A DNA stretch of 57,902 nt from Moniliella sp. 'wahieum'. Lineage: Eukaryota. The DNA lies in assembly GCA_003971905.1 (NCBI GenBank), contig RSEE01000085.1:248001-305902 (forward strand), written 5' to 3'. The notes beneath the pieces are model-generated. The model searched no databases, had not been told where the DNA came from, and was given only the letters and a program-made list of their open reading frames with translations. Of the stretch, positions 1,801-48,731 are shown piece by piece. Numbering within the stretch: position 1 is the stretch's first letter; the number at the start of each line of letters is the position of its first letter. Made by a program: the position numbers and the translations under genes.

Positions 1801-1852
1801 GGTTGCGGTCGTCGACGATGGAGGCGCTTGAGTTGATGGGGCGTAGAACCCA

Positions 1853-1862
1853 GAAAAATTTT
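1853..1862. promoter_or_regulatory. RRPE-like motif (GAAAAATTTT) in the 240-bp divergent NUG1/RAD10 intergenic region
   Basis: Matches the ascomycete RRPE consensus ~55 bp upstream of a ribosome-biogenesis gene. Function in this lineage is not established. Confidence 0.3.
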
Positions 1863-2040
1863 GGTGGCGCCGCAATGGAGGAATTGCATATCAAAAAGAA
1901 ATAAAAAATTAAATCACTGGCAGGTTGCACCGACGTCATCAATCAACCAAGTCACCTCGATAATTGCCCAGGGCCATTGTGGCCATTGTGCGTAGTCGGT
2001 TGGTTGCTGGGGCTGCAGTCGGGTCTGTACCACCACCGCC

Positions 2041-6696: not shown

Positions 6697-7363
6697 ATCT
6701 GCGGTGCGCTGTACAACATCTCAGAACGCTCTCTGGTTGCGCCACAGCTGTGCCGTCAGCTTTTTCATTTAATACCCTCCACACATATAACCACCAGCCT
6801 CGTATTGGTACCAACTCTCTTTTCCCCCGTCTCATCAACTGTGGCACACCACCTTCATTTGATCTTCCTTCTCTACCTGTGCCATGTTGCCTCTCGCCAA
6901 AAAATGTTTACATGCTTCGTTTCGAGAGAGCAGCCCCCCTATCTTCCACATCCGAATACATCAAGGCTCAGCTTGGCCTCCTGTCAAGTGTACTCATAGA
7001 GGGGACGTAGACCTTTTCAGGGCAACGAGCAGACGTCCAAGGACAAGTTATTGCATGAAGTTGTCAAGTTATAGATATGCTGTGTGGGCCTTGACAAGGT
7101 CAGGCTTGTGTGCTGCTCTAGTACTTGCCACGGTATGTGGTCGAGAAACTCCATTTCATCCAACTACACCCCTTGCGGGGGAATGAGCCTCATTGATGCA
7201 ATTTATGCCTCGTTGCGCCCCCTCGGCGGAATAATTTAATGCTTGGCCGATACTCATTCCGACGGCCTGATTTTTTGTTTTCTCTGCAAACTCGCTCACC
7301 TACACTCCACCCATCCACTTAGTTTGCAGCCCCCCAGTCCTTTTTGCCCAACGAGTACGGATC

Positions 7364-8753
7364 ATGGGTCGCAAGTCTGCACCTGCCACACGCGCCGCCG
7401 CGCCCAGCAAGAAGGCTGTGCCTGCCAAGCCTGCCAAGAAGGCTGTCAAAGTGTCCAAGAACCCCGAGCCGGAGCAAGATGTCGATTCTGCCGATTCGGA
7501 GGAGGAGGAGGAGGACGACGACAACGATGACTCGGAGGAGGAGATTAATGAGGAGGAGATGCAAAACCTCATGGCTGCACTGAAGAGGCAAGGTGTCGAA
7601 CTCCCTACGGGTGAGGATGAGGATGATGAGGATGATGGGGAGGAGGAGGAGGGTGATTCAGAGGAGGAAGAGGAGGAGGAGGAAGACATGGAGAAGCCCA
7701 TGTCTAAGCCCACCCTGGCTGAGAGCATTCTCCGCAGCGGTCTCGTTCCAACCGAGTCTGGGGAAGATGACGAGGAGGAGGACGAGGAGGAAGACGAGGA
7801 GGAAGATGAGGACGTGGAACTGGACCACATCAAGGGGAAGTATCTCCTGCTGTCTTGGCTACCAAGCACAACCGAGTACGGATCAACAATGTGGTTGCGC
7901 TCAAGGCTTTGACTGAGGCCATTTCGCTCAATGCGTGGCCAAGGGCCCCCCCTTGGCCTGGACCGAGACGATGGATGTGTCTTGGCCAGAGAACGTAGCG
8001 GAAGAAGTTGGTAGCCCTCGAGGATGACTTGAAGCGGGAACTTGTGTTCTACCGACAAGCCCTTGCCGGTGCTGAGGAAGGTCGTCGTCGCCTAGCCAGG
8101 CTGGGGTGCCTCATTCGTCCTAAAGATTATTTGCCGAGATGGTCAAGTCGGATGAGCACATGGAGCGGGTCCGCCAGCGCATGCTGGATGAGCGTGCCGG
8201 AATCAAAGCGTCGGAAGAGGCCAAGCGTCAACGTGAGCTCAAGAAGTTCGGCAAGAAGGTCCAGGTGGAGAAGCAGTTGGAACGTCAAAAGCAAAACGAG
8301 AGTTTGCCGACAAGGTCAAGGATCTGAAGCGCAGTATGTAGACCCGTCCCTTCCCCCTCACACAACCGGCGTCATCTCTGTAAGGATCGCTGTGCTGACT
8401 GACCTTTTCCTGCCTTGTCCAGAGCATTCGGGCGGTGGTGACGATGGGTTTGATATCCAGTTGGCTGATGTCATGGAGGGCGAAGCGCCCCCCGCGGCGT
8501 GCGCGGCGGTTCGGCTGGGCGCGGGCGTGGTGGGGGCAAGCATATGCCCCGCTCGGCGCGCGATGCCAAGTACGGCTACGGGGGCAAGAAGAAGCACTCA
8601 AGGCCAACACGCGCGAGTCGACGGAGAACTTTTCGTTTGGGGGCGGTGCGGGGGGCCGGCCAAGAAGCGCCGCATCTCGGGCACGGCGGGCGTGCGTGCT
8701 CCCTCGAGCAAGAAGAACCGGCCGGGAAGAACGCCCGCGCGGGAAGGAGGTAA
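7364..8753 (+). CDS. EBP2: rRNA-processing protein Ebp2 (frameshifted)
   Basis: Acidic N-terminus; DDLKRELVFYRQAL, RPKDY(F)AEMVKSDEHMERVR, RQRELKKFGKKVQ; intron 8334..8422 (GTATGT...CTGAC...CAG); C-terminal RDAKYGYGGKK and RPGKNAR motifs. Confidence 0.92.
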
Positions 8754-9016
8754 GCGAGAGTGCCTTCTGCTTCATCGGCTGCTCGATCCTCATCGACATC
8801 TCCTGAATATAAGCTCCAAGCTTCAACTTGCCTCCGTAGATCTAATAGATGGCCATATAGACGCCCGCCGGTCACCCACCGATCATCGTTCTTTGATTGG
8901 CAGAGAATGGATGTTGAACATTTGAACCCGAGAGCCGTCCCCCACCTCGGCCGACACATGCATGCATCACCATTGCTCAAAGGGCCTGTGCTTCTTGCCT
9001 CGCCACCACCACCACC

Positions 9017-12000
9017 ATGCCGCCGAAGCGAGGGCAGAACGCATCCGACGACCAGCCGTCCGAGGTGGAGCAAAACGATGCGCGCGGATATGCGTTGTGG
9101 GTGCGATCCCTGCAGGCCAAGCTCTTGTCCGCGCGCGCTGAGATGCAATCGAGTAACGCCGAGGCGGTGCTCGAGGCAGAAGCAAGCGCCCAGGCGGCTA
9201 GCACCGAGCTGGCCCAGGCTTTTGCTCAGATGGAGCAGCACGTTGCGCTGCGTCCGGCACAGTGGGCACTCTACTCGACCTACTCCCTTTCACGGGTGGC
9301 TCACGAGCAGCGTACGGCCTCATTGACCGTCATCCCCGCCGCGCAACTGGAGGCGGTGCTCCAGATCCACGACCGCGCCACGCAGGCCGGCTCTGGTATG
9401 GACGCTGCGGCCCACGCGCGTTTTGCCTCTCTTCTTCTTCATTGGCACAGTACTTACTCTGGTACCGATGTCTGGGGACTTTTCAACGGTACCACCGGGC
9501 TCGGGGCAGACGAGGCGATGCACGAATCGGTGCCTGCGCCGATCAACGAGGGTGTGCCGACAGTGGATGTGCTTCAAGAGCAGACAGGGCTTGTGGGTGG
9601 GGCTGTACTTCAATCTACCAAGTCAGGTGCCTGGACGTATGTCGCGCCCTCTTTGCCTGCCGTTCCCAGCCTGATCGAGGTGGCAACCAAGCGCGCAAGA
9701 GCAAGGGTCGGACGATATTCTCGTCGAGTATGAGTCCCTTCTTGGGGAGCCGGCGGTGCGGGAACGTCTCTGGACCGCATATTCTCGAATCGCGCATGAT
9801 GCAGTCAACAGTCAAGCCATCTTTCTCATGTACTCTCTTCGAGATGGCTTATTTCCGTATCCGCGGGGACACCGAGCAGCGGGACCGTGTCCTGCGCGCG
9901 TTCAAAGCACGGGCCGCCGTGGCTCATGAACAACGCCCCCTCACCATGTCCATGATGAGCGAATTTGTTACCACCTTCTTTGACTCGGAAAAATACGAGT
10001 CTCTCATGGCTGCTGCTGCTACGGCGGGTGCCGCCGCGGTAGAGCATGCCAACCGAGTCCGGGCCCAAGAAGAATCACTCCGAGGAATCTTTGCCACTAC
10101 CTCTGATCCTAGGGGAACTCAAGGAGTATCCTACGAGGAGCTTACCCAATTGACGAAATACCTTGTTACGGTTACGGACCGATCCAATCCTGTGATCGAG
10201 CAAGCCGTCGTACTTTACCGTCGGGTGCTAGCTCTTGTGGGCTTGCCACCGACCTTGACCCGAGCAGAGCAGGCACCACCTACCCCCGAGTACGAGCAAG
10301 GACGTCAGGCCAAGAACCCTGAGGTCAAGGCGGCCGCAGCGACTGAGTTGGACTCGGCGTTTGCCACTGCCGAGGGGATGTGGGAGGATTATCTTTCTTT
10401 CCACGCTATCCACGGCCAGGATGCATCCCCAGCGGAGGAATTGGATATCTACACCGAAGCTCTACGCGCGATGCCGGGGAGTGGGACTTTGTGGGCGTTC
10501 TTGCTGCGGACCCAAACGCGTCTGTGGCAGCCTTTGAAGTGGTGGAAGCAACGTTCCAGACTGCTTTGGACCTACGACAAGTAGCCAAGCGGGGCCCGGC
10601 TCCTTTCGCTACCCTGCTTCTGGGTCGTTGTGTGGCCGAGAAGCAGCTGGCTTTGATTGATCTGGCTCAGACTCAGGGAGTGCCTATCACTGAAGTGAAG
10701 CTAGCTGAAGAGCTTGAAACATTCGTCCGTGTGGAGGAAGTAACCTCCCATGCGCTGGAGCTGGGCAAGGCTCGCCTTCTCCCCAAGGGCAAGGCGGGGG
10801 GCAAAGCGGGTACAGATCCGGAGCTGCGGTTAGAGCGATTTTACTCGAGTTGGTGTGAGCTCTTTGGCCCTGATACGGCTCTGATGGCCAACACTGTGTG
10901 GAAGGAGGTAGCAAATGCAGCGGACTCAGTGCCGGGCTCAGGTGACTGCTGCCGAGTACTTTACGCGTGTAGGAATGCTGGACGAGGCACGCCACATCTA
11001 CAAGCGAGGCTCGCGTATTGTCACCGAGGACCAGTCTCGTCTGCTCGACGCCTGGGTCGCCTTTGAGCAAGTTCATGGGACATTGTCGGATCTCGAGTAC
11101 GCCCTGGCACGGTCTAAACGCGAAACCCAAAAGGCATGGGAGCAGTACTATTCGTCATACCAAGCCCAGGCATATGAAGCAGCTGCCCCGGTTGCTACGG
11201 AGTCTACTGCTACCACTGTTCCCTCCACAGCCCAGACTGCGGCAGTTCCTCCGCCTAGCTTCGAGACCACCCCATCCTCGACTGCGTCCCATGTCCGTAC
11301 GGGCAGCAAACACAGTACAGACGAGGCTGCACTGGGCCTCGCTAGTACCGATCCAACAGCTGCACCGGGTCAGGCACCTCGTGGAGCTGAGGAGATGGCT
11401 CGGCCCAAGCCTAAGCCCAAAGTGGCGGACTTCACTCTAACCCCCGACCGGGAGAACACTTCTGTGGTCGTCTCGTCTAGCGTTGCAGAACCCCCCCCTC
11501 CGACAGACGAGCTACGAACATTGTTCAAAGGGTGTGGCACCATCAGTGATGTGGTGGGTCCGCGTGCTTTGGCTAGCGGAAACTGGGCAGGCACGGTCGT
11601 TTTCTGATCGAGGGGCGATCCCCACAGCCTTGACTCGAGACCAAAAACGGATCCCCGTGGCGGGTGGGACTACAGGTCCGGTCCATGTATCTGTCAGCAG
11701 GGATTGCACACTCTATGTGACCAACTTCCCAGATACCTACACTAACACGGACATCACGTCTCTCTTTTCCGAATTTGGGGATGTATTGGACACCCGTTGG
11801 CCCTCAAGACGCTTTGCCTCCTCACGCCGTTTCTGTTATGTGGAGATGGCTACAGCTCAAGGGCAAGCCGCTCGTTAAGCGCGAATGGGCGGCAGCTCTC
11901 AGAGCTCAACCGGTTGACGGTAGCTCTTTCGGACCCTGAGCGGCGCAAGGTGCGCTCGGATGCGAATGCCTCGGAACGGGAAGTGTATGTGGGGGTCTGC

Positions 12001-19952: not shown

Positions 19953-22900
19953 TTAATTGTACCACCGCTCCTGAGGCGGGGCGTGGTAGCCCTGCCCAGC
20001 CTGCGGGGCCGGGGGCTGGGAAGGGAAGTTAGAGTAGGGCATGGTTTGCGTAGGAGCGGGGTGGTGGGCCGAGGGGTGGTACGCGTGGCCAAGGTAGGCG
20101 AGGGGGAGAGGTGGTGGCCTTGGTGCGGCGAAACGGAGGGGTCGGTAACATGGCCCACATGGGGCGGAACATGGTTCATGTGGCCGGGCACGTGCGCCAT
20201 GTGGCTCGCAGGCGGGAAATGGGACGGAGTGACAGGCGGCGGGTAGATCCCGTAGCCATCGCCTTGACGCGGAAGAACAGGATCGTAATAGTACGGTCCA
20301 GGGCGTTGACGCGGTCCCGGTCGACTGCCTACCGGCGAGGGCATCGTGCCCCCCTTGCGGCCCAGCTCCCGCAATGGGCGGCAACCCGGGGGAGTAGGAC
20401 CCAAGGACAGCCGCCGATCCACCGTGTGGGGGGGCAAGACACTCATCCCTCCCATCGGGTCAACGCTCACCCTTCGATCCGAAGGGGCAGGCGCGACGTG
20501 GAACCGGGCCGGGCCCAGCGGGATGACCGGTTGACGTAGGCGGAGGGGGCGAATTGGGATCGACAAACATGTGCGCCTGCACCGGGTCCGAGGGGGTAGG
20601 GGAGGGGCCATACAACCCAGCTGACGGGGCCAGACGCGCGTTGCCTGGTCCAACAAGGGGGTTGGATGCCAAGGCAGGATCGGACTGGCGCATGGTATAC
20701 GACGGAAGGAAGCGCGTGTCGCTGTCGGTGGGAGAAAACGCCGTAGGAGCCGTAGTGCCCGCGGCGAGATGTGCATTCGGAAGGGGTGGCTCCAGTACGC
20801 TGGCCCCCGTAGAGGCTGGGGCGCCGTGAGGTGGCAGCGGGTTAGGCGGCTGAGCTGGTAGCTGGGCCTCCTCGGGGCTCAGCGACGCATCCGTCACGCC
20901 CCGAGCCAACCCCGAAGCGTGGAGCTTATTGCTGGCCCCGCTTGCTGAATCGCCGCGGGAGGTTGCACCGCCGGGGCAAGTTTGCGTCCTGAAGCCCGCC
21001 TTCCTCCCGCCCCGGTCGCGTTGGGTCCGGCCGAAGTTGCAGAGGAAGCATCGGCCGGCTCCTCGACTGTCCCCTCATTGTGAAGGAAGCTGTTCATCGA
21101 GGCCTGCGACACCCATCCTCCCCACCAGACCGCCTCATGCGGCGCCATCAGGTTGAGTCCATACCGACTGCCCTGCAGCAAGCATCGATCAACCCCCCCT
21201 TGCGAGGCTGAGCTGGGTATAGTCTCCTCCAAGTCAGGAGATTCGCCCAAGAACCTGGGCGCGAAGAACGGCCCAAAGCACCTTGCGGCGGCACGCCCGC
21301 TCCAACCGAGAGAGAGAGAGAAGGCCCGCTCGACGTGTCTAGACCGGCGAGACGAAAGAGTTCTTTCATCTGGTCAAGCAACTTGGTCCCATACATGCGT
21401 GAATGCGGAGCATAGAGGTTGGTCTTATTGAAGGAGGGAAAAACGAGGAACTTGGGTTCCAGCGGCTGGTTGCCATTAAGCCGGACACAAAATTGGGCCC
21501 AACGCGTAATAGTGCCAGCGGGATCCAGCGTTGGCTTTTCGGCCTGGTACTGGAGACAGTACGTCTTGGGCTGCCGATCGTTGTTTTCTCGCCAGGGTAG
21601 AGTGACCACGGCGGTCGGGGTAGGCGTAGTTTGGGTCGACAGCGCTGCCGGGTCCATCGGTGAGACCGAGCGTACCCTTCAACAGTTTCGTAGTGGCCTC
21701 GGGCGAGACAAACTTGCCAGTGTAGTCGCTGAACGAGATGTTCTCCCACTTGAGCAAGAGCAACTCATCGAGGCGCGTCCAGAGCAAGTAGCTGAGGGTC
21801 AAAAAGTGTGCATAAACAGATACAGCACCAGCTCCCGGGAAGACTTGTTGTTCGTGATAGCGTCCTGAACAGACGACATGCATGAGTCAGTAAGAATACC
21901 AAGGGACGAGGGCTGGGGAAGTAGGGCGGGGCAGATGTTTCACACGCACCTCATCCATCGTCTCGTTGCGCAAATATGATAGGACTACGGCCAGCTCAGG
22001 ATAAAGGAGGGGCTTGACTTTCACATGCTCCGAGTCGCGCCGGCGCCGGCGTTCCCCGCCAGTGCGGGAAATGGAATTGTACCGAGCACGGTACCGCTCC
22101 GAGAAACAGGGTTTCCTTTTGCGTGACGCTCATTGAGGTCCTGAATCTGGTCCCAGGCAGCCAATTCGCGCTTCAGACGAAACTTAAAGTAAGCGGCTAG
22201 GGCTGAATTGACCCGACTCACGGTATTGTACGACAAGCCGCGGTCCACCGCATCATCAATGTACAGCAGCATCGCGTCCAGCGTCAATTCCGACACTTGA
22301 TCAAACGAATCGGCAAGCTCGGGCTTGTGGGTCGCCAGCCATTTTTTCATCGTGACAATCGTATCATCATACTGCCGCAATGTACTTTCCGATGGACTTT
22401 GAGTCCAACGGGAACCACGTGCGACAGTGGGACCAGTACTTGGGGACTTGCGTACCGAACGACGACGCGGGGCACCCGACGGCGCCCTCGCTGTCGAATG
22501 CGGATCGGCAGCCACGTCGGGCTTGGCACCGGTGAGGGCCTTGGTACTGGAGCTGCGCCTGCGCGCGACAGAGGCGGGGCAGGAAGAGAGACCGAGGGGA
22601 CCGAGGAACGATGGATAGGGGAGATGGCTCCGACGTTGGTCGTAGTGGAGCGACGGCTGATTTGGAGCAGGGCCGGGTCGGAGTAGGAGAAGGTAGGGGG
22701 GAGGCAGGCGGGGGCTGGGATTGCGCTTGCGCTTGCGATTGCGCTTGCGATTGCGACGGCAGTTGGGGTGCACTGCGGCGATTGGTAGGCGCGCTGCGCA
22801 GGCGGGAAGGGTGGGTGAGGTGCGCTGGTAATAGTATTGGTCGGTATGGGGGGCAACGGCATTGGGCCCCGTGCTAGGATCCGAGTAAGGTGGGCCCAAG

Positions 22901-23108
22901 GGGCCTTCGGACGCGGAGGCACCAACAGGCGCACCCGCGGGACCGGACGACGGGCCAAAGGGGAGGAGTCCCAACTGGGGCCCGACAAGGCAGGGAGCAC
23001 AGCAGAGGCGGCAGGCATGATCGGGCCGCGCGTGGACTGGCTACTGGCGTTTGTAGGGCTGGTGGGGCGAACGATCTGGTAGGGTGTGTATTCGGGTGCG
23101 GGGGGCAT
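19953..23108 (-). CDS. Crypton-like tyrosine-recombinase-fold protein with long Pro/His-rich N- and C-terminal extensions; catalytic His and Tyr apparently substituted
   Basis: Helical core-binding region (TLRQYD...SYNTVSRVNSALAAYF...W...GNP), intron 21865..21949, LLWTRLDELLLLKW (first catalytic Arg), LDP...W, LVFP, YTQLSL(R)KGG at the HxxR box, and WWGGW...SMNSFL at the Tyr box. Assembled across several indels. Confidence 0.75.
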
Positions 23109-24899: not shown

Positions 24900-27800
24900 G
24901 CTGTTAGCCGGTCACGCCCCGATCACTCGATCACCGCTCGCCAATCATGATGCATGACCGGATGACCATCGATCTTCGGCCGTTGTACCCGTAAAGCGTA
25001 ACGCCCAAGTCGTAACCGGGTGGCATCGATCATAGATGTCTCAAGTGCACAAATTCATCAAAGGGCAGCACAGGCCTAAAATTCACGCAGCCCCAGCCGG
25101 CAACTCGTACCCGGTACCCGTGGGAGCGAGCGCTCAGGCCACAGGCCGAGCGCTGTGCCTCAGCGCTGACATGCTGACATGCTGGCAGTCGACAATCGGC
25201 AACCGATAATCGATAACCGGTACCGCTAAGCGCTAAAAGCTAGCGCTAACGTCTAACGGCTAACTCTGGCTGCTCGCATGTTTTAGGATCGATCCTAGCT
25301 ATACAAGCAAAGAAGCCTTTCGCATTCATATCCCAGCTGCGGGGTTTCTTTCTACGCTCTCATCTTCCCGGCCTCCCCAGCCTCCCCTGGGGTCTGGGAT
25401 GAGTATATCCTTGCGCTGGCTTGAATATTGAATTGACATGCAATTGACGTGTTGATAACGCTTCTCTGGCATGATGCGGTCAGTCATCATACATCATGCA
25501 TCAACGTTCAACGTTCAACGTTCAACCACATTCGTCACAGCGTCACTGTCACTATGTCACTAGCTCTTTGCGTGTGAGATCTAGAGCTGAGCTGCTCAGC
25601 ATGGGAGGCGTGACGCGGACTCTGCATGCTGGGCGCGCTCGCATTCCATCGAATCATTAATCGTTGGCATCAATTGATGAACGATAATCGATGATCACGC
25701 GTCGCGTAACTCCGGCCCTGTGATGCATGATGCCCAGCCACTGCTCAGCCATGCACCAGGCTGGGCGCCGGCCGTGCCTCGGTCCAGGCCGCCTGGATTC
25801 CGATCAGATCTCTCGCATGTCCCTTTCAAGCTTCACGCTTCACGCGGCACGCGTCCCGCGTCCTGCGTCCTGCCCCACCTGTCCCTGCCAGTGCCCAGAT
25901 GGACGGCATCCAAGCTCCGTTCGACGGGGGCAACAACTTCGCCACCAACGTACACGCGGCTGATTACGAACTTGTGCACTGTGCAGCCATCAACGCGTCC
26001 CTCGACTCAGTACTCACAGCTTACAGCTTGAAGCACTGAGTTCGGGCGCCTGAGCGCGGGCTGCGCCAGGCTGCGGCGTCAGGGGCACACCCCTTCAGAA
26101 CACTACCCATCGTGGCATAGGCGCATAGGCCTCATGCTCAGCCTGAAGCTTGAATCCTGGGACCTGCGAGTGAGCGGGGAGGCACTGCGGCTCAGCAGTT
26201 CGCGTGCAGCGTAACGCGGTGCATGCTACCAAGGGAATGGCGCTGGGCACTCGGCCTCATCGATCATCCGCGCAGACCGCTTAAGCCCAGAGGCGCGTTT
26301 AAGTGTTAGCATGTTAGGGGTCTGATCGATCTGATTCATGATTTGGGCCTTCGAAGCACGATCTGAACGTGCCAACGTCCCATCGTTCAACGTTCCTCTT
26401 TCATGCACGTTGAACCGCTGAAATTACAGGTGCAGCCTGGTGCAGCTGCAGCTGCCAGTTCACGCGTTCACGTCTTCCCCAAACTGGCCAGCTGTCGCAG
26501 TGCTGTCCCTGAGTACCTGAGGGGCTGAGTGCACTTGTTCCTCGCAGCTGGCGGCATGCAGCAGGATGCAGCATGGGATGTAGATGCCTGGCGTCGATCC
26601 ATACGGCACCAAGAACAGCGGGACCCTAGTTCGTCTAGACCCTGCGATGTTACGTTTTATTAACGTTTAACGTTTAACGTTCAGTACGTGCAGTTCAACA
26701 CGTTCAACGTGTTCAACTTCGAATATTTGAATTACGGTTGAGAATCTGAAAACAGAGATCAGAGTCTAAAGAAACCGCGGGCCATTGAAATTGTTGAGCG
26801 CTGCTTTCTTTTAACGGGCTACCGGCTACAAGCTACCGGTTACCAGTTACATAGTTACCCATGATGTACCGCGGGGGCGCGTGCCGTGTACCACCAGGCA
26901 AGAATCGAGAAGTGGGATGGCGATGGCGAGTGAGCCGGTCAGATCCAGACCGAAGGCCTAACCGCTAAGCCCGATAAGATCGATAAGACCGGAGGCACAG
27001 GAGCTCAGTTTCTAGCGTAAGGTCTAAGGGGCTGCTGTATTGGTACTGCAGAGGGTCGAAAAGGGTCGGAATGTATTGCGTGGGCCGACAGCGGCTTTAC
27101 GCGGGTAGGCTTACGCCCGTTACGCGTTGTGCGGTACCTACTTAGCGCTTAGTTCCACGCGTTTCATCGATTGTATTGATCATCGATCATCTTCTTGGGC
27201 GAAATTGGCGGAGGGCGTAAGTATGGGGACAGTGTACCCCCATCCGGGCTCCCTCAGCCTCATACATAATTGATCTCAGAACTGTGACTCAGTACTCATC
27301 CATCTCATCTCGTCTCTCTCTCTGGCTTTCAAATTTTGAGGTCAGCTGGGGCGCTGAGGTGCTGAGGCGCTGAGGCCTTCCGCTCACGCGCTCACGGCTC
27401 GACGATGCTAGTGCATGATGGACCCAGGTTCGAAGCTCGTCCCGTAGGCTTGTGGCCAGTGCCCTATCGAATCCCAAGCTAAAACCCAAAGCCAGCGGTC
27501 AGCCGGTCAGTGCTAAGCCTGAGCGCGTCGAGCCAGCGGCAAGTCCTGCGATGTCCTGGCGAGTACCGAGACCGAATCCTAGGACCTAAACGCAGAACGC
27601 GGAACGCCTGATGCCTAACAAGCCGACAGGGTCAAAACGCCACAGCAGCCACAGTCTGGCGCAGCTTGTCGCAGCGCGTGCATTCAATAATTCAATGGCC
27701 ACTGCATCACGTGGCGTCATGCATCGTGCTCCCCGAATCGGAATCACCCATGCATCATGCGTCACAAATCCGCTTAATCACTTAATGGATAATCCTTTAA

Positions 27801-29400
27801 TCACTTAGGCACCCGGTCAAGTCACTAGTCACGTGCTCCTCGCGTCACATGTCACAGTCGTATCGCGTGTCATGCATGTCGCATGTCACATGTCGCATGT
27901 CACCGGATACGTGATCGATGATCGATGAGATCGATGATCGCTCCTTGAATCGATGGATTTGAAATTCTCAGGTCGGATAAAAAGGAGGTGCGCGGGTGGC
28001 AAACAGATGGATGAGATACAGCCCTACGTAGCCCCTTGCCAGTCCACAGTAACCGGTGACATGCATGACTATTTGTCTACATCACGTGTCACAATCATAG
28101 TGTGTCAAAAGTATAACGGCTCCTGTGCCTTTGTCTCGAAATTCATACGCATACCGAGTACCGATCCCTGTAATGTATGTAACCGCTGCATTGATCATTG
28201 ACTCAATACTCATACTCAGCGATCATCGATCATTGATCATTGTATCATACACCGCACATCATGCATCATGTATCATGCATCATGTGCATATTATTTTCTC
28301 ACACTACATAGCTTGTGAACCAATTCAGGCCCAGACCCTCCCGTGCCGTTGGAGGCAGTACGGGCCGCACCTTCCCAAATGCAGTCGCGGCCCACAAGGG
28401 CACAAAACAAAACGGATGTATTTGCATCTGGGATCTGAGATCCTGAGATCCGACCCCTGTACGTAACAAAACCCCAGCTTTTTCCGGCTTTAAAATTTAA
28501 GCGCTAATAAGCTGCCTCTCTCACCGCCTCCTCCCTCGCCTTCGCAGCAAGCAAGGCTCGCTAGGCTCGCCATCTATACCATTGACCATCCTGTCCTTTA
28601 CTTATTCATGACCGACATGTGACACGCATGATACGTGTCCTTTTTGAAGCTTGACATCCACGAGCGCGTTATATGTTTTACCCAGGTATATGGGGGAACA
28701 GAACACCCTGGACCACCCCCACTGAAGGGCGACACTGCCATTTTCTCCATTCTGGACTTGTTTGTGCGAACATGCGCGCAGCTATCGACTATCCAGCTTC
28801 CAGAGCTAGCGCCGCTTCCGTCGGTTCTTCGTCGGTGCCGGCACTGCCTATTGAATCAACGGTCACAAACGTCAGCGCGTTAGGTGTTCTGAGTGCACTG
28901 ACTAGTCAGTAACTAGTAACTAGTAACTCAATAACCAGTACTCCGTACTCAGTACACTAAGTACTCCAAACTCGGTACTAACGCGGGACGCGCGTTATGC
29001 GTTACGCGTGTCGCGTTTTCAAAAGCGTGGGGGTACGTGACGCGTGTGAGTGCAGAAGACGCGCGTGAGGCCTGAGGACCAGTGGATAGTCCCTAATCTC
29101 AGGGGAAATGAGTATATGAGTACTCAACTGAGTCCTACTGCGTACTGAGTTCAGTACTCACCAGACTGAGTCAAGCTTCAAGTCTTGAAGTGGCGAGAGT
29201 CCGAATAGGATGGGATGATCTACTTCATGATCGACAGAGCGCCACCAACAGCGCTTCGCCTCGACCTGATGTGTTTATAGCTTCACATGTCACATGTCAC
29301 AGTCGTTGTGCATTGCATGTCTCCATGTGTTTGTGGCTCCGCCTCGCTTTGGGTTCCGTAGAAACGGTGGATCCTCCGTTACGCGTTACGCGTTATACGC
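24900..29400. repeat. Non-coding region dense in 7-bp-period palindromic microrepeats
   Basis: AACGTTC x3 (25503), AACGTTT x2-3 (26662), ATCGATG x2 (27914), ACTAGTA x2 (28912), ACATGTC x2 (29285), ACGCGTT x2 (29381); no credible ORFs. Confidence 0.8.
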
Positions 29401-31398
29401 CGTTCCATAGTCCGATTATACTGCGAAAGTATCCGGCAAGTCATTCGGAGAATGAACTACCCAGAGAGAGGGTGGACTTATGGGGGAGTGACGGATGCGT
29501 ATATTGTAAGTGCTGATCTGATGAGAGTTGAGGGTATAGGGGTAGGAGGGCGGCAGCAAGGGACGGGCTAATGGACTGTGGGGGGGGGGGGGGGGGGTTA
29601 ACGCACTCATACCGGGAACGTTGAAAATGGGAAAGGGCATCAGATGGAGGGGGGCGATAGACGAAGGAGGTTAATCAATCTGATGGAAGAATGAGTTACA
29701 TTTTGTGAAACGCGGGCCAGGGGTGTATTAGGGGGGGATGTATGGGAGGAGAACGTTTGACGACGAAGACGCAAACAGCAACATACTATAGCAATAATGC
29801 GTTGGAGAGCCATACTCGTGTTACAGATTCAATAACCCATTCCGCAGAGGGTTGGTATTTATACAGGATGAAGGTTGCCCTCTGTAATACAGTGATGGCG
29901 CAGTAGCGACGTATGGAAGAGCGATATCGGGGGAGGTTGGTGACGGTGGCGGGGATAACCAGTAGCTCCTTGGGAGGGCGGGTAGGACGGGTTAGAAGGC
30001 GAAATATAACACGGGCATTATGGGCAATCGATTGTCCGTCGGCCCAAAGCCCATCGTGTTAGGCCACCACATGTGACCACGAAGGTCTCGACTCTACCCA
30101 AGAATCGATTTTGCAAGAATGACATCTTCAACTTCATGAACCGGAATTAGGCGGCAGGTCTGAATGAAGAGGTGTTACACTGATCGAGAGTGAGAAGCCG
30201 GGCAAGGGGCAGACAGGCGCAATGAGCCGAGACGCGGCAGGGTGCGGTTCCGAAAGGATGGGTTATAGTAGTATGCAGTGACGGGATGGAATATATCACA
30301 TGAACACGCACGATAGAGGGTACCCTCACCTTGAGAGGGGATATAGCTGTTCCGGAGGATGGTTTTATAGAGAGTGACGTTGTAGTTCCGTGTCCCAGGT
30401 GATTGGCCTGTAACTCAGTAGTGCTGCATTTGTAATATCTCGATCGTACGGACAGTAGAGATAGATGCCACATGCTTGCGGCCTCTAGTGACGCGGTCTG
30501 ACGAGTTTTGGTACGTCCCGCGAAGTGCGAGAGTGCGCCCGCCAGAGTGTGAATAGGGGTTTGGACTACATTTACTACTACTAGGCTACACTCGCTACTA
30601 CACACCGGTTATACTAATGCATATTAGTACTTAGTACTTAGTCCAAACAACACAATATAGGTTTCTGCAAGCCCCGCCGCGTATACTGCATCCATATCAT
30701 TGACAGAGTTAAAAAGGCTGGGACAGGGAAACGCTATACCTAAACCGACCGGATCATCTTAGGAGTTTGTGCTAAAAACTGGGTTTGTGGCAAGACAAAA
30801 CACACGGGGGGTGTGAAAAATTGAAACAGGGTCATGGCGGGATTGGAAAATGGGTAGATGGGCTGGATAAGCGGAGTGGGGCTGAAGAGGCCGGTGGCAG
30901 AAACCCGACGCTTTGGCGACAGGCATTTGGGGCTGCAACCACGCCTCACCGTCTGGCCTCTTACTCCATAACCGCCCCTTCGCTTCGGCCATGCCCCTGC
31001 GTATGGACGCATGACAGTCATCCGTCACCTGGCTCGTTCGCCGGCAAAAGAACTTCGCATCATATCAAGCGCCGCCCATGGCCCCATCTCAGATCCCACG
31101 TCTCGAGAGGTTCCGGCTGATGGGTCCGGGATGCGCACCACCCTATGGCCTGGCTACTGATGACTGACGACTGCACCAAACCTATACTCATCCTCATCGC
31201 GCAATGCAGTGTCCATTTGGTTCTCGCTCAATCACTGTCACTGTCCGAAGAGTCGTCGCTGTTGCCCCCTCCTCCGACAGCGACCACGGCAGGTGTCTTC
31301 TTCTTGGCGCGCGCTCGTCCCACAGGTGCATGGCACCGTTCGTTGCAATCCTCTGGGCCACGTCTTGCTCAGCGCGTTGGCGCTCAGTTCCGGGGACT

Positions 31399-32900
31399 TC
31401 AGCTGATCCTCAAGTCCATGTGCGGCTTGTGGTGTGGTGGACTTCGCATAGCGTATTCGTTCAATACCAGCCGCTTCCCGTTCTTGGCTTTAAAATGAGA
31501 CGCCGCCGGGATGAAGTACTCTATCGCCTCGTTCTCCCCGAGATAGGGTCCTTCTCGTAGTTGTGCACCAGTACTTTCTGGCCGTCCTGCTCTATCATGA
31601 ACTTCTTGGTGCAGGCGTGCTGGAGAGGCGCCTCGCTGCCAACATCCTGTGGTCAATGTCCCAGTGTCAGTACTTGATGAGCAATCGTCACGCAGCCGGA
31701 TTCAGCACTCATCGGTGCTCTCCGTCAATAGGGCAAACTCTTCAGGAGCATCACCATCATCGAGTTCGCGGACAATGCGGCAGCCTGAGCGATGCGTGCT
31801 ACTCGTGATGATGTACGGCCTGTACCCGACCCAGGCAGCCTTCTCATCCAACGGGTCGTGCCCAATCCGGAGGATCTTGCCAATAACAAAGTCGGTGGAC
31901 GCGCTGTACTCGGCCGACTTCTGGCCGATCGTCACGTTCATCCCCACACGGATCATCTCCCCTGTAGCGATAACAGCCGCCTTGCCCACCAGGTACTGCG
32001 CCCGCACCTTGACACGGCCCGCCAACTGGAAATGACCCAGCTCCTCGTCGGTGAGGTTGTTGCAACCCACCGAGGATTGGTTCTTGGCTGGGGCCAGCAC
32101 CACTCGTGGAATCGCCATGCCATCAGAGTCGTAGCCGGGCTCTTCCTTCCCTTGCTCCAGCACCCCGGGAGGAGCCCCAGGCCGAGCCACCACCGAGCCG
32201 TCACTAGACACATCGTACCCCGGTGAAGAGTGGTGCAGAATCTTCTCGGCGACCAGGACGTTGTACAAGGTGTCACGCGGGAGGTTCTGGAAGTTGCAAT
32301 GGGCAACGGACGCACGGTGCTTCACGCGACCCTCGAATCTGGCAGCGTCCGTGTTCTGGAGAGGGCCGAACAATTCGAGCGCATCAGACGTATGCGCCAG
32401 GAGGAGATGGAGCTTCGGTCGCGTCGCGATCATGGCGCTGTCGGGGCCGAGTCTCGAAAGGCGTTCGATCAGTCGGTATGCAGTCTGGGTCGCCCGGTAC
32501 TATTCCAGCCATAACAGGCATGTCAGCGTCTAAACCCGTATATCAATCAAGGCTGTGGGACTTACCATGAACTGCGCCCTGGCCTGCCCGGCAGCCGGGT
32601 ACCATGTCCTGGAAAGCAAACCATGCAGGCCGGCTGCCGCGACGATAGCGTCATAAAGCGGAATCGGAAACGTGAACTCCTTCTCATCGTTGGCCTCTTT
32701 TCCGGTCGCGAGGATGGGGAGTGCCGCGAATGGGAGAGCCACAAGCATAGTGCGCACATCCTTCCCAACCCCACAGTCTTTAGGTTAGCCAACAAACCCC
32801 TAGCTCGGATATTGGTGCCCTCTGCGCTCCGTGTTGAGATCGCTGATGAATATCAGCCTCTTGGTTGCGGATTTGCTCGACACGCTCATTCGGGGCGCCG
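31399..32900 (-). pseudogene. C-terminal part of a fungal En/Spm(CACTA)-like transposase, fragmented
   Basis: RPKLHLLLAHTSDALELFGPLQNTDAARFEG...CNFQNLPRD matches the K-x-H-L-L-x-H...FGP...FE motif of CMC-type transposases; also GKDVRTMLVALPF upstream and LVLNEYAMRS downstream. In-frame stops are present and no N-terminal catalytic part is recognisable. Confidence 0.65.
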
Positions 32901-35553
32901 AGCGGGTTGTCATGCGCCCGCGGGCGGCAAAGGACACGCCCGTGGGCTCTTGAAGGTGGTCCAAAGGAAACACTGGGCTACGTCTGGCATAACTCGTCCT
33001 CGGCCATGGTAGTGTCTACAGGCGAGGAGGCACGGGAAGCAAGGGAAGGCGAGCATGTGTCAGGTGTGGCTGGGGCATGCTCGCATCTTCGGCCACCTCG
33101 TCAATGGCGTGACTGGCCCCCATCCTCGCACCCAGCACCACGTTGTGGGTATCTGCGCACCTTCGTGTGCATGCATGAAACCGGACATCGGTTGAACTGG
33201 GCAAGCAGGGAACTGGTACAGCAACCTCTCGTCCTGCTTCATCGTGGACCAGGCCGCGGGAAAAGGTACAGCAGATGTGTCTGTCCTATTGTGCACGCGT
33301 GCGAGCTCGTTCCATCGGTCGGCATTGCATTTTGGTGAGCCGACGTCGAAACATGGTGGTGGCGACTTGGTAAAAGGATGGGCGAGATGGGTTGTACATG
33401 ATATGCATTGGTGGGTGCTTTTTTTGTCACAGGTCCGGCAGACGATCGCGGCCCCTTCTAACCTTAAACCTTGTCCCCTCTAACCTTAAAACTTGCCCCC
33501 CCTCCCAGAGACGCACGCTCTCCCGCTTCTTTGATGCTCTTCCAAGGCGTATTACATTCGTCATCCCCTATCTGAAGATGAGAGTGGCGCAGTCCAGATG
33601 GCCACCCTGATGGGTGATGCGGTAGCACTATAGTGTTGGCAGTGCGGTGGTCGAATACGCCAGCCAACGACACGCCTAACACAAGGGTGCATGAAAGAGC
33701 AACAGAGGCTATATACCTTAGGGCTGCGGAGATCATGGACAAAGCCAACACAAAAGCTAAATGGAATGGTTACAACATCGGAGCTCCTTGACTCGACCAG
33801 GGGCTATCGCCTTGACTTTGATGATGTAACACCGTAGGTTACTAGTCACTAGTCACTAGTATAGCTCAAGTGAGGATAATCGTGACCTGTATAGTGATTC
33901 ACCCGGCTATGGAGACCACAATGGATGCTGAAGCGTTTGGGACAGTAGCGTAGTCGATCGATTGCGGGCGAGAGATAGGCGTTGGTGGTAGGAAGCAAGA
34001 CGAGGGCTACTGGACAAGGCTACTAGTCGTTGACTTACGCGCGCATCAGCAATCTTCGGGGAGCCCTTGGAGTCTCGGGGCTAGAGAGGCCGCAAGTGCG
34101 CCGCGTTCGGTGAAGCCAGTCACCGTCGCAACAGACAACTAGTACCGCAGCAAGTCGCAAATAGGCAAAGTCAAAATGGCGCTCTTGATTGAGGTGATTA
34201 GACCCTCGAACACTCTGCTGCAGGAGACCGCTATAGTGTTGAGGCGTTAGACAGATATAATAGCTTACCTATAGGCCCCTGGCGTAGCCCAGATTGGCCT
34301 GTGCGCACAGATTGGCTGCGCCACACGCGCCTCCTTTTAACCTCCTGCTCCTCTGTGGTTGCATCCTGTCTCCTCACCACCGCCCCTCTCATTGCGTCCG
34401 TCGCAACCAGTATCCCATCTCTGCAGCCAGCACATCGAAGAGTGCTCTGTCCCACGGCGCAACAGCACCATCTTCTCCCTGAACATCAACATCACCATCG
34501 TTGCTGCCTGCACTGCTTACTGACCGCCTTGCTAGTCCCGCCCCTATCGCTCGGTTCTTCTCGCCTGGTCTGCATTGCTGCCGTACGTCTCCATTCCCTC
34601 TCCCGCCACACTCCGTCCTCCTCGCCTCGTCAGTATCGCTGGTGAACGCCCCCTCTGCCTCTCGCCCCGGCCCCCTCTCACTGTCTGCATTGCTGTTGTC
34701 GTATGTGTTCTCTTGCCCACCAGCGCTCTGTTGCTGACCCCGCGTACACAGACTCCCCTCGCGGGCCATCTTGCCCTCGTTTCACCTGATCCGCAGCGCC
34801 ATCGTACGTGCCCGCTTCCTCCGCATTCCCCACACTTCTGCTGACCTTGTGGGTCGCATGCATGACGTGCATGCACTTTTCGTTTCGCTCACCTTCGGCC
34901 TTGTCCGTCTGGTTCCATTTTGCCTCGCCTGAGGTCCTCTCGCTTGGCTCGTCTGTGCCTTGCCATCGTACGTCCCCCGTACTTCGCGCTTGGAGTTGTC
35001 CTGCCGCTGACACTGTCTACCCAGCTGCTGCATGCACGGAATCCCACGGTTGGTTCGTCTCGTCTTGTTCGCCTCGACTCATCTGACCTGTTTCGCCGTC
35101 GTACGTCCCTTCTCTGTTATATGCCAACGCTGTTCCTAACATTGTTCGCCCTACCAGTGTACATTCCGACTTCATCCCGCTTGCCCTCGCCACTGGCCGT
35201 CTTGATCGCCTGACCTGTGAGTCCGTCGCACATCATTTTCTGTGTCTCGCGCTAACCCTATGCTGCTGCTGACTTGGCCAGCGTCTCCCTAGTGCGCACT
35301 CCCCTCACACTAACCTGCCACTTTCTGAACCGCTCGCTGCTCTACTACGTTGTGGTGCTTCCGTCTGACGTCACACCTAACCGTGGTTGCCGTGTCATCG
35401 CTTCCCAGCGATCTTCGAAATTCTATATCTAAAAAATACCCCCTGCCTATAAATCTAGTAGTTCTGGATCGATGCCAGCCAGCCGGTTGGAGAGCCTACA
35501 AGCACGCATCCAATCAAAACAGCTAAGCGTTTGGGCACATTTGAGCTAAGGGC

Positions 35554-35756
35554 TTGAGCGCATGTGGCCAAAGCCATTGAGCGCATGTGGCCAAAGCCAT
35601 TGAGCGCATGTGGTCAAAGCCATTGAGCGCATGTGGCCAAAGCCATTGAGCGCATGTGGCCAAAGCCATTGAGCGCATGTGGCCAAAGCGCTTGACTTCA
35701 TGTGGCCAAAGCGCTTGACTTTATGTGGCCAAAGCGCTTAATCTCATGTGGCCGCA
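35554..35756 (+). repeat. Tandem array of ~9 x 23-bp units (TTGAGCGCATGTGGCCAAAGCCA), subterminal to the transposon end
   Basis: Units start at 35554, 35577, 35600, 35623, 35646, 35669, 35692, 35715 and 35738, diverging progressively toward the right (TTGACTTCATGTGGCCAAAGCGC). Confidence 0.95.
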
Positions 35757-35850
35757 ATGTCAAAAACGTTCCGCACCAAATTCTACGCATTTTGGGTAAT
35801 GTGGTCATCGATCATCTAAGCAAAATATTAATTTTTTACACCCGCCCGTG

Positions 35851-40954: not shown

Positions 40955-43900
40955 CGACGGTGGTAGTGTGGTGGGGGTGGGTCGGGGGGGGTGGGGTGGT
41001 GGGGTGGTGGTTGGGGTGTTTCAGTTGTACGGGTCACACCCTTTATATAAACTTGTTTGCTGAAATCAAAAAGTAGCTTCCGGTCATGGCGATCAAGCTT
41101 TCGATAACGTATCGAGAGAGGTTATCGATTATCGATCATCCCCCCCTCTCAGCACATATGTAGCTCTCTTCCGTGTGCTGGTTGATTGGGTATAGGGTAT
41201 AGAGGGGGAGTAAATGTGGAGAGGAGATTGACATGATTTTTGGTGTCGTCTGTTCTTGGTTCTCTCACGCGTCTCATAGCTGCGTCAGGTGGCCGAAGCC
41301 GATGAATCGACGAAAATGGCGTTTTTCCCCGCATAAGCGACGATCGACCCCCCTTTCTTCTTCCGTCCTATATCATTTTACCAGTATAGTAGTAGCAGTA
41401 GTATTCCTGTGAGGTATATTTTGCGTGAGTACCACACGATCAAAGAAGTTCTTTTGTGGCGTCGCCAGCAGGTCAGAGGATCTTCTGCCACCCGCCACAT
41501 GATGAGACCTGGAGTCCAGGTGGTCCTCGAGGGTATGCAATCGCACTAGTGGTGGTGGTGGTTGTCTAAGCCAAGCAGCAACGCCTACTGAGGAACATCA
41601 AGCAGCGAGTCGCCACCAGGGCTAAGCTGCGGAACAAGGTAAACAGGAGAGAGAAAAACAACGGAACTCCTAGGCCTGAGGAGGAACTGAAGGGACATTG
41701 GCCAAAGCACGAGCCACCTGGCTCAACACCACATTCGGCTTGAAATGGAATGTATCAACGCCCTGAGGCTGTGACTCCTGAGTCAGGAGTGTTTTGGATA
41801 TAGTATGAAAATGAGAACTTAATGAGCGCGCAGAGACAGCATGTGAGCGCTGCATGATGCATGAACCCCCTCTAACTATATATGATTAAGTAGAAGATCA
41901 CCGGATCAACTGCTCGGCTTCAATTGGGTGCGCGTTCCACCGTCTTCCTCCCAGTTCCACTTGTCGTGCTAAGCCATCGTAGCCACCGTTTCACGCGTCG
42001 TGGCAGCGCCGGCGGCCCTGCGCGCGTGCTATAATACGTCGGAGAACTTGAATAGAACTATGCTCTACGCGTTTTATTACCGCACGGATGTCTGCCACAC
42101 ACTCATTCGCATATCCTCGCGAGCTACGTCCGTCGAAACGTGCTGGAAAGAAACTGCTTGGGGTGATCATATTGCCAAGACAAGGTTGCATGATTATCCC
42201 TCAGGATCATGCAGTCAGTCGTCATCGAGTAACTACCCAGGATAGAAGAAACTGCCCCCAAAACAATATACCAATACGCATATATCAAGCTTCAATGGGT
42301 TAGTGGTATACTACAATCATCGTTGCCAGCAGGGCGTTGTTGCTCCTAAGACATCGATGTGACAGGGTTTGATTCCCCTTTGAAGCACGTCTTTTGCACA
42401 TAAAGGCGACTTTCCTTCTTTTGGATCGAGCTGTGCGCGACTTCACCAAGTTGGCGGTGGCATTGTCCATCGGTGGCATGCAAACTGCGTCCGTTGTTCC
42501 GATTCTTGCATTAATTAAAGTCGAGAGAGGAACGATAGACCGTCAAAAAGTGTTTTTGCGCCATTTCGCAAAATGGACAAAACTAAAAAGTAAGTGGACA
42601 ATCGTTTGTGCGTTGTAGATCGTCAATAGTCGCCCATCACATCAAAAGCGCCCCACGTTTCCGCACCCATTCTCACTTTCAAGCTTCATCCAGTGTGGAA
42701 GAACCCACAGGCCGTTCTGGCCTGTCAGTGAGGCCGTTGGCCTCATCAGCTTTTTTTGTATATAGCTGAGCTTAGTGGAGGTGGAGGCAACAGTAACTGA
42801 GAGATAAGGGAATAGGGCACTATATATAAACAACTCTGTGTATAAGTGACCCTCGAAGAGAAAATGGAGTAGTAATACGCCATTCTCCTGTTATCAACAG
42901 AGGGATTCAAAACAACGCCGTATAGACAACAGAGGGTCGCCCTTACTTTGTCTTCCCATTCATTTCCACGGTGCGACTACCGCCGGGAAGTTGTTTTGCT
43001 CTCGGAATGCCGTTGTGTGCTCTTGTAGATGTGACGATATAAATTTGCACAACATATCATCGTTTTCTTGGAAGGGGAAGGGCGTTTCCCATTTCGAAAC
43101 TGGTATATAGGGAGTGCATCTCATATGTTGTAACGCAGTATACCACTGTGCTTTTTGGGCGTGATACGAACTCTTCGCACCTTAAAAATGCTTGAAAAAG
43201 AAGATGCCGGTATATATTACTAGCTCTAGAGGGCCGCTTCGTCCCTCCACTGTGGCGGCTTTTGGTACCGACGCTTCTCCATCTCCTTTTTTGGGTAAAC
43301 AACGAAGTTCCAAAGGGAAAGATAGAATGCAATTCGCAGGGATTCAACTCTTTTCTCTTCCTCATTTTTGTTGGATTCATTTGGTGATGACGAGTGGGCA
43401 CTCCACCGCTTCTTTGAGAAATACATATCCCTTTTTTCTCATCAAGAGCATATCATGTTGACCCTATACCCCCCTCGACCTGTGAGAGATGGGGAGTTCA
43501 GTTTCCCGTACATTATAATAGTCCACACCGTTCTTCCATATATATATCGTCTATCATATATCACGGCCCACCATATGTTCCAAGTCTATTACACTGTCTA
43601 CTGTACCGTGATTTCCAACATGTCCGCAGGCACACATTCAAGCATTCCATCATAGCTTTGGACCTAGCCTTGGGCAGGATTGCTTCCTCTTTCTTTTCCC
43701 TTTCTTGATGGTCGTCGGAGGCCCGAGAGGAGGGAAATAAGAACGGTGGTATAGAATAACCGGTGGACTTCATTCATAAGGCGAAACTGAGGCTTCAAAT
43801 TCAAGCTTCTGCTTTGTTTGGGCGGGGGGCGGGGGGGGGGCATATGTTGTGACCGCCGCCTGGAGGCCTCTGTTCCTGCCTGCAGTGGCCGTGTCCAGCA

Positions 43901-45676
43901 CGACGAGAATCGTGCGTACTAAAGTGTAAGGCGTGACGCATGACGTCATGTGAGACGCTCCCTTGAAGCTTGACTGCACATATATGCATCAACGTACTGC
44001 ATCAACGTTCATTATGTTCACCCACATGCTACAGGTGTAGAGGTTGCTCTGCAGGTTACTCTACCTAGGGGAAACTTGATCCGGAAACGAACGGATCGAA
44101 TGCGAATTGACCCCAATTGGCCAGGAGCGCGTATTCGGCTAATATATTCTGACATGTGGGACACGGGAGCGGGCTCAGGCTGAGCGCTGAACCTCCGCGC
44201 TGAACCTCAGGGCATAGCCTGCTCTAACAGGGCGAAGCTACTAGACGCGAGGGGAACCGCATCGGTAAAATTTGAGTACGTTATAGTAACACCCAGGTGT
44301 AGTGCATCAGTTGGGCCATGTGCGCGTTCGGCATTGCACGCCCAATGTTTACAGCGACCTGTCTACCCCGCAAGGCGGAGCGGACAGAGACACGTAGAGG
44401 GATGCAGCAGATGCGCTGATATCATGCATCATGCTCATGTAATGTAACCTGTAACATTAACGCGAACGCCCCAACGCGTTGTTAACGACGCAGTCGAACA
44501 TTCCCAGCAAAAAAGCACATGTCTGTCGCTGGAGCTGGCAAAGTGGCGTAGAGCTGGCCTCAGATATCCGATTCGCGCTATTCGGCTTCCTCGCGCTCGC
44601 GCTCCTTGGTTCCTGCGGCGGGGAGGGTGAGGTCACCGGCCACCCGGGCTCTCCCGCTCCACTTGCTCGCGGCCACAGACCGGACCAAGATACAGCCCCT
44701 CTGCGCCCAGTCCTATCTGTTTTCCCGGTAGACGTCATCGACGTCATCGATCATCGACCACATGTCGACGAAGCTGTCTGTGATCGGGTAGCGGGTGCGC
44801 GTTGGGCGATGCCAGTGCGGTGTCGATGAGGCCCCTGACGCCCTGACGCCCTGAGGCCTGAAACCTGAAGAGAGGGAGATGGGCGAGGTAAGCGAGTGCA
44901 CCGTATCGTATCCTTGCGTCTTTGCTACTCGGATACTCAGTACACACTCAGTCCCAATACTCAGTACTCAGTGAGTACCATAGGCAGGACATCGTACTCA
45001 CAGTCTCAGGCACCGAGCACTGCCGTCACCGGTCAGGCCTCAGGGGCCTCAGGCGTCACCGGTCCCCGGTTCACCTCGCGCTCTGCTGTCTCACAGCCCA
45101 GGCCCCAGGTCTCACCCAGTCACCGGTCACCGGTCACCGGCCACCCAGAGTCACCGGTCACGTCCGGCACTCGTCGCGCTGGTGTCTCTCCAAACGCACA
45201 CTGCTCCCTCCTGCCCAAGGACTATGAAGATATGAAGTTCGATTAATTTGGTGAGCCCACTCGTTCTACCCCCCCTGCTGGAAGCAACTCACCACTCACC
45301 ACTCACCTAGAACGCCATATCAGATCTCAGAGATCTCAGGCCGCGCCCGTCACTACATCACCCTAACACGCAACGTGTGCACATGTCGAGCACAGAGAGA
45401 TACTGTCCCAACGAAGTGATCTCCTCCCAGCTGTCTCTTGTACGTTGCCAAGCTTGGCGCCGGCAATCCAACTCCGACGGCATCACTCCTGCAGCCCTCC
45501 GTGCTCGCATAAATTCGGTGGGTGCCTCGCTGCTCTTCTCTCCTCTCTGCTACCAACCCCCCCCCCCCCCCCCCCCATACACACCAACCTGCCCTTCCCC
45601 TTCACCACCTTCACAACTCTCGCATATCCTCTCGTCACTCGCCTCTATACTAGGCTCACTACACTGCTGCTGCAAT

Positions 45677-47935: not shown

Positions 47936-48650
47936 GAGGACCTGCGAGGTACACAGTGGAAGCGCTGCTGCTTTCTCTTGTGTGCCCGCGTTCTTGTCTG
48001 AATGTCTATACCCTCTCCACATGAATGATGTGAACCACATGATGATGCTATCGAGCCTACTACCCACACCCTCAATTGTTGAATGCTCATGCTGCTTTTG
48101 ACCTTTGTTGTTCCCATCCTTCCTCCTCTGTATATCTCTATACTGATGGAGACTCCATAAATGGCCTCCATTGTATACAAACAGCTCTCAGAAATGGTGC
48201 AAACGGTGAAAAGAAAGTGTATGGAAGGTTTTAGGCCTTCGGGGGACGCCTGTGACATTTGGAAAGTTGGTAGTTGCACTCAAGAGTCATTCTTCCTCCG
48301 GCCAAGGCAATGCGCGGGCTCTACTACGCTACCAAGATCAACAGGATATGTAAGTGTTGGAAGCTTCTCTTCTCTTCGGCAGTGGAGATGATTCATCTCT
48401 TCGCTCACACAGTCAAGTCTCTACACTTTTGACAAGATCCGTATCCACTCTCATCACATCCATTTTGGAAGCAAATCAGGGAGGCAGAGGATCCTGGTTT
48501 GCTGGCGAGTCACATACTTCAGTCTTGAATGGGTTGGCACGAGAAACAATACACGTCGAAGGAAAGAGTCTGATACGCAATGTCCGGAAATGATATGCAT
48601 GCGATGGTAACATTTTGTCACATGCAGTGTGGTGTGAATTTAAGGACCAA

Positions 48651-48731
48651 GGACGGCTGGCGCAATGGTAGCGCGTCTGACTACGACTAGTTGTAATCAG
48701 GAGGTTGCAGGTTCGACCCCTGCGTCGTTCG
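48651..48731 (+). tRNA. tRNA-Arg(ACG) with 9-nt intron (48687..48695)
   Basis: Acceptor stem GGACGGC/GTCGTTC, D-arm GCGC-AATGGTA-GCGC, anticodon arm TCTGA-CT-ACG-A^A-TCAGG, T-arm GCAGG-TTCGACC-CCTGC; T7 Pol III terminator ~20 nt downstream. Confidence 0.95.

Follow-up and report, generated by a model that had tools for sequence, protein, structure and literature searches.

What creates the many different seven-base palindromic repeats crowded into one intergenic part of a fungal genome is the question raised by positions 24,900 to 29,400 of a 57,902-nucleotide stretch of Moniliella sp. 'wahieum' (GenBank assembly GCA_003971905.1, contig RSEE01000085.1, positions 248,001 to 305,902 of the forward strand), the whole of which is called the window here. 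The initial annotation described a 6-base-pair (bp) palindrome beginning with A and ending with T, followed by one spacer base, and gave 14 examples. Thirteen of these consist of two exact palindromes at seven-base spacing, located where it placed them; the example at 28261 has one mismatch in the second copy. Tandem pairs of a 6-bp palindrome plus one base number 19 in the window, versus 0.2 ± 0.4 in 20 block-wise dinucleotide shuffles of it, and 18 of the 19 start with A, bearing out both the anticipated period of seven and the A...T cores. Spacers of 0 and of 2 to 7 bases give 0 to 4 such pairs each. Palindromic 7-base repeats in non-coding DNA are therefore confirmed as real.

The unit is better written as TNA-xy-y'x'-TNA (N, any base; a prime marks the complement) than as an A...T hexamer plus spacer. 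In the window, TNA-N4-TNA encloses a palindromic centre in 95 of 226 cases (42%), compared with 4-11% at the 15 other X-N-Y anchors. This enrichment concerns even, four-base centres, while three-base centres occur at the expected level (33/131 vs 32.8 expected). In 83 of the 95 sites the two TNA copies share their N, and in 4 the two are complementary, indicating that TNA is directly duplicated, and all 16 possible cores are represented.

Across 394 kilobases (kb) from three contigs of the source genome, 336 sites were counted, a density of 0.85 per kb, with 278 of the 394 one-kb bins containing none. Within this genome, 140 kb of contig C81 (loci L041-L054), for which no close homeolog was found, were used for counts only. 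The 27 metagenome loci from distant fungi, whose 27-54% identity limits them to the role of negative control, hold 6 sites in 204 kb (0.03 per kb). Versions without TNA are not enriched (213 vs ~245 expected), no wider target consensus appears within 13 bases of the TNA sites, and 14 of 66 three-TNA chains mix two cores. Coding DNA is free of the unit: of 838 TNA sites in coding intervals with approximate limits, 0 have it, versus 83 of 1678 elsewhere (p 1e-14), most likely reflecting selection against frameshifts. The intergenic clustering and the avoidance of coding DNA would also suit a grammar of binding sites under selection, recognised by dimeric DNA-binding proteins of one family. Against such a grammar, N is repeated instead of complementary and all 16 cores occur.

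The source of the core is a further point against it, since the core copies the flank. With a site noted as ab-TNA-xy, a right-templated centre reads xy-y'x' and a left-templated one b'a'-ab. Among 178 isolated palindromic sites the centre is flank-derived in 140 (right 63, left 48, either 29), with 38 matching neither flank. Isolated joints made of a duplication, two inverted bases and the duplication again number 119, 32, 25, 1, 0 and 0 for duplications of 5, 6, 7, 8, 9 and 10 bases, compared with 6.8, 4.1, 3.2, 0.7, 0.1 and 0.6 per other dinucleotide; the excess at 5-7 and its absence at 8-10 identify ab-TNA-xy as the longest enriched duplication. Joints carrying inverted pairs from both ends (xy-y'x'-b'a'-ab) were found 4 times at TNA, 2 of them unambiguous, and at none of 7 control anchors. 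Net lengths of 7, 8, 9 and 11 bases occur in the ratio 381:41:45:4, and 26 of 41 eight-base joints show 1-base microhomology. Perfect TNA...TN'A palindromes, in which N is complemented, are flank-templated in 22 of 36 cases. Mismatches at the outer T number 47, versus 30-32 at the other three positions, a difference bearing on hairpin opening at +2 or +3.

Geometrically, 7 bp centred on TNA are duplicated, and inverted additions of 2 bases stand at one end or at both. A 3-bp duplication of TNA and a 5-bp duplication are both ruled out, since the mirror products and the joints of 9 and 11 bases call for 7. In 100 of 119 unambiguous sites (84%) N is C or G, a little over the 74% background. A strand polarity by N (TYA versus TRA), hinted at by the window, was no longer seen when more sites were counted (52 C, 48 G).

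The stretch 24900..29400 has a homeolog on contig C81 at 88% identity. Individual sites in the window, none with an assigned strand, are as follows.

24900..29400: intergenic dense cluster with 37 seven-base, 9 eight-base and 3 nine-base joints, covered by the homeolog alignment
24955..24965: 8-base joint without counterpart in the homeolog
25494..25526: chained array in which ACGT cores follow a left-templated TGCA core, with fewer ACGT units in the homeolog
26460..26470: 8-base joint without counterpart in the homeolog
26660..26683: TTA/ACGT array, shorter in the homeolog
26704..26715: 9-base joint in which 2 inverted bases separate the copies of a full 7-bp duplication
26975..26986: 9-base joint in mirror orientation
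27912..27940: TGA/TCGA array
28491..28500: single 7-base joint, core AATT, opposite an empty, non-palindromic site in the homeolog
28910..28926: TAA/CTAG array with an identical counterpart in the homeolog
29283..29299: TCA/CATG array with an identical counterpart in the homeolog
29379..29395: TTA/CGCG array with an identical counterpart in the homeolog
30803..35850: CACTA-type element, young, with terminal inverted repeats beginning CACGGG, which served to polarise the change
33839..33860: TCA/CTAG array inside the CACTA-type element, unit number varying among copies
35805..35814: 7-base joint inside the CACTA-type element, a polarised gain carried by 1 of the 9 copies that align there
43964..43973: single 7-base joint, opposite an empty site in the homeolog

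Empty and filled alleles were compared in a 234-kb homeolog alignment, from which the paralogous alignment of L043 with the window was dropped before indels were counted. It contains 44 clean indels of six bases, 66 of seven and 38 of eight. Among the 66 of seven bases, 17 fit the rule at a site without a prior palindrome (3 of them with an additional one-base difference in the other allele), 10 alter the number of units at a pre-existing palindrome, 8 are plain duplications and 31 are unclassified. In 511 site comparisons between homeologs, 222 sites are identical, 220 show an indel there or immediately adjacent and 69 differ by substitutions.

These counts bear on ordinary slippage of chance palindromes and on sequencing or assembly artefact, which together we regard as scarcely credible. 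An artefact had to be considered, as genes in the assembly are often frameshifted. Against it stand the 222 sites identical in the homeolog and the sites common to transposon copies, and a base-caller would not respect the coding boundary described above. For slippage, the 10 unit changes at existing palindromes indicate that it probably does lengthen arrays. The inverted bases are nevertheless beyond its reach, and the empty alleles without a palindrome already refute slippage acting alone, in agreement with the initial annotation, which had judged it insufficient.

Direction was obtained from transposon copies. The CACTA-type element at 30803-35850 has CACGGG termini, subterminal repeats of 23 bp and numerous copies (87-96% identity), and is missing from the homeolog; the two copies read at both ends (L110, L113) show a 2-bp duplication. 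Its open reading frame (ORF) at 31702-32499 has no Pfam match, and its atlas neighbours share no family. At 35805 only one of the nine aligned copies has the joint, the other 8 being without it, and the gap recurs in further copies. At a second transposon site (L098:3612 and copies), 17 of 20 copies are empty, 1 is right-templated and 2 are left-templated; the middle base of the empty copies is C in 10 and G in 7, which may be a trace of N-complementing events that were later lost. At a third transposon site, where no empty copy aligns, one copy holds an 8-base right-templated form and eight hold a 7-base left-templated one. Because the copies are related, these are few events and not independent counts; they polarise the change as gain and show its mirror symmetry. 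New sites thus arise inside transposon copies, and 220 of the 511 homeolog comparisons carry an indel at or next to the site, two further points against a binding-site grammar, which we consider very improbable. The verdict is a real, recent, enzyme-like insertion process with a well-defined geometry.

As to its nature, we lean towards a reading in which the repeats are the piled-up excision scars of a transposon that forms flank hairpins and makes a 7-bp target duplication, an account we judge probable. The counts themselves establish the rule, the templating from the flank, the classes of joint, the limit at 7 bp, the polarised gains and the lack of sites in coding DNA; the element, the hairpins, the joining pathway and the slippage are the inferred parts of this account. 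A cut-and-paste enzyme would attack ab-TNA-xy with a 7-base stagger, so that the insertion comes to lie between two copies of these 7 bases. When the element leaves, the two flanks would be sealed as hairpins exactly at the duplication ends and opened about 2 bases off the tip, yielding the self-complementary overhangs xy-y'x' and b'a'-ab. End joining would mostly retain one 4-base overhang and not the other, giving a net gain of 7 bases and either TNA-xy-y'x'-TNA or TNA-b'a'-ab-TNA; in rarer cases both overhangs would survive in part or in full, for net gains of 8, 9 and 11. Hairpin opening further out would complement the second N at the same net length. Since each scar holds two TNA sites and a 5-base direct repeat, re-hits would chain different cores and slippage would multiply units; the mixed-core three-TNA chains would be explained by such re-hits, and the long arrays are probably due to slippage.

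The initial annotation had proposed cleavage and hairpin formation at TNA itself. This position is not upheld, the tips being placed instead two bases outside TNA on each side, at the ends of the 7-bp duplication, which would make the A...T hexamer a by-product. Its wider suggestion of a dedicated process with hairpin-derived bases, resembling the palindromic (P) bases of V(D)J joints, gains support from the empty and filled alleles, the polarised gains and the two-ended inverted bases, while the enzyme it implied was not found.

Replication template switching offers another route to inverted bases, with a polymerase copying 2-5 opposite-strand bases after TNA-xy and re-priming upstream at T or A. 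It is not known to us to be confined to a single trinucleotide or a constant offset. Four-point switches with 1-base microhomology can spell both the 7-base and the N-complemented joints, and short switches are known (PMC5453318, partial text), four-point switching leaving short inverted copies beside direct copies as seen here. Yet only TNA is enriched, although ANT, CNG and GNC offer equal microhomology; the switch point always lies 2 bases from TNA, on either side, the duplication ends at 7, and the two-ended joints require an additional jump. Template switching is accordingly held to be quite unlikely.

The scar reading invites comparison with known systems: the process works like a flank-hairpin excision footprint, yet it fails membership of each family tested. 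PIF/Harbinger and IS5-type elements have a TNA/TWA target and a 3-bp duplication. They are alike in their TNA target and unlike in that the duplication here reaches 7 bases; a 3-bp duplication cannot place flank bases between two TNA copies. The PIF/Harbinger transposase PF13359 has no match in the genome. Joints of V(D)J recombination and Transib have even symmetry and 1-2 base additions, matching those seen here, and Transib duplicates 5 bp. Transib and RAG are unlike the present case in that the duplication here is 7 bp centred on TNA, as the mirror products and the longer joints require, and the outcome is far more uniform than in V(D)J or Transib joints (381:41:45:4) and spread through non-coding DNA.

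The literature that follows is cited from partial texts. Flank hairpins are established for hAT, Transib, RAG and Muta1 (PMC5499845), and Artemis opens hairpins at the apex or 2-4 bases away (PMC13041557). V(D)J recombination (RAG1/2 with Artemis) and Transib are alike in having flank hairpins opened off-centre, leaving short inverted P bases before end joining (PMC5499845, PMC13041557). Footprints of Ac/Ds and other hAT elements, including those in yeasts, share the target duplication, the palindromic P insertions and the use of microhomology (PMC5873905). Repbase contains hAT families with 7-bp duplications (PMC4455052), so an atypical hAT-clade enzyme is a possible agent. The Muta1 flank hairpin holds both strands, 43+43 bases (PMC5499845); Mutator-like elements (MULE) differ in making 8-10 bp duplications (PMC5499845), the limit here being 7.

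Several points weigh against excision scars. Ac/Ds palindromes centre on the complement of the element-adjacent base (PMC5873905, partial text), while those here are even and have no central base, and Muta1 with a target duplication excises precisely in more than 90% of events in yeast (PMC5499845, likewise partial). Homeolog indels by themselves give no direction. An element that has inverted ends and a 7-bp duplication centred on TNA was found neither among 45 weak candidates in the examined loci nor among 13 large homeolog insertions or 434 gaps of at least 12 bases. The families PF13359, PF05699, PF10551, PF18758 and PF04937 gave no genome match, three of these searches lacking a positive control. 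For PF05699 and PF04937 (hAT) the positive controls were silent, and for PF10551 (MULE) the control matched only in prokaryotes. Finally, 336 sites in 394 kb is a very high density for scars with no element in sight. The element hunt covered ~0.6-0.9 megabases (Mb) of 69.5 Mb, about 1% of the genome, so that a few fast-moving elements could be missed. Repeats recognised in the examined DNA (solo long terminal repeats, Helitron-like and CACTA-type) include none with a 7-bp duplication.

Two resident candidates were rejected as agent. The CACTA-type element has a 2-bp duplication (L110, L113), unequal to the scar length, and a tyrosine-recombinase-like ORF at 22021-23040 (weak PF02899 match, E 7e-4) was excluded on chemistry, by inference.

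The dense scars with no element found, together with the strict TNA and the lack of a wider consensus, favour a version without any resident element, which we regard as unlikely, though less so than template switching. Here a domesticated transposase or nuclease would act at TNA, form hairpins two bases outside it and join the ends of two copies of the site, supplied by sister chromatids or by a filled-in 7-base stagger. Fungi do have domesticated hairpin-forming transposases (Kat1; PMC4763223, partial text). Against this version, the duplication needs an extra source, which a transposon gives naturally; the five Pfam family searches, three without positive control, revealed no candidate gene; and a few fast-moving elements could have escaped notice in the ~1% of the genome covered. 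It is correspondingly doubtful that a host or domesticated enzyme of this lineage, following a RAG-like hairpin route, constitutes a self-seeding, sequence-directed insertion mutator at non-coding TNA that writes flank-templated 7-base units. If true, such a mutator would have written tens of thousands of palindromic repeats into promoters.

The window is fungal and contains genes for a Nug1-type GTPase, Rad10, an amino-acid transporter, RPL31, a helicase and a GRDP-like protein. The best named relatives of the transporter are in Ustilaginomycotina at 57-70% identity, and other proteins reach 78-82%. The genome comprises 69.5 Mb in 223 contigs. Besides its close C81 homeolog, the gene at 4959-6364 has eight further matches at 77-80% identity, apparently paired; contigs with further matches of this and other window genes are C15, C26, C51, C43, C23 and C8. 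With the second copy on C81, these eight paired matches make the genome look polyploid, and the pairs suggest several rounds of genome doubling or hybridisation, unusual in a smut relative. Homeolog identity with C81 is 99% over window positions 1-11483, as after recent gene conversion or loss of heterozygosity, and drops to 89-95% further along.

Other features were also observed. A transfer-RNA-like gene lies at 48651-48731. The GRDP-like gene occurs as tandem paralogs at 45033-48030 and 53220-56156, with duplicated flanks, in both homeologs. On the minus strand at 20460-23040, frameshifted ORFs with a weak phage-integrase N-terminal match (E 7e-4), found in the homeolog as well, are possibly a Crypton-like tyrosine recombinase. 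A solo long-terminal-repeat family (TG...CA, ~235 bp) is located at 41493-41732 and at L024:9041-9272; its copies at L024 and L066 have a 5-bp duplication, and the window copy is absent from the homeolog. A Helitron-like family (TC start, terminal hairpin) is found at L037:4404-4997, at L035:8959-9506 and in the window near 30690, is polymorphic between homeologs, and in its L035 copy sits between A and T without a duplication.

No description of a TNA palindromic 7-base pattern was found in the literature covered, which mostly excluded subscription papers and did not include supplements. If the scar reading is right, this fungus preserves, across its whole genome, a fossil record of excision through hairpins followed by end joining. 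Extrapolated from 0.85 per kb in the 394-kb sample, which is non-random, the total would be roughly 59,000 sites. The reading would predict an unclassified transposase that strictly targets TNA, duplicates 7 bp and forms even flank hairpins, traits that none of the families checked combines, and the rule is exact enough for testing in mutation-accumulation lines or in any related genome. Transposition scars, not slippage, would then offer a route by which microsatellites arise and intergenic DNA is reshaped.

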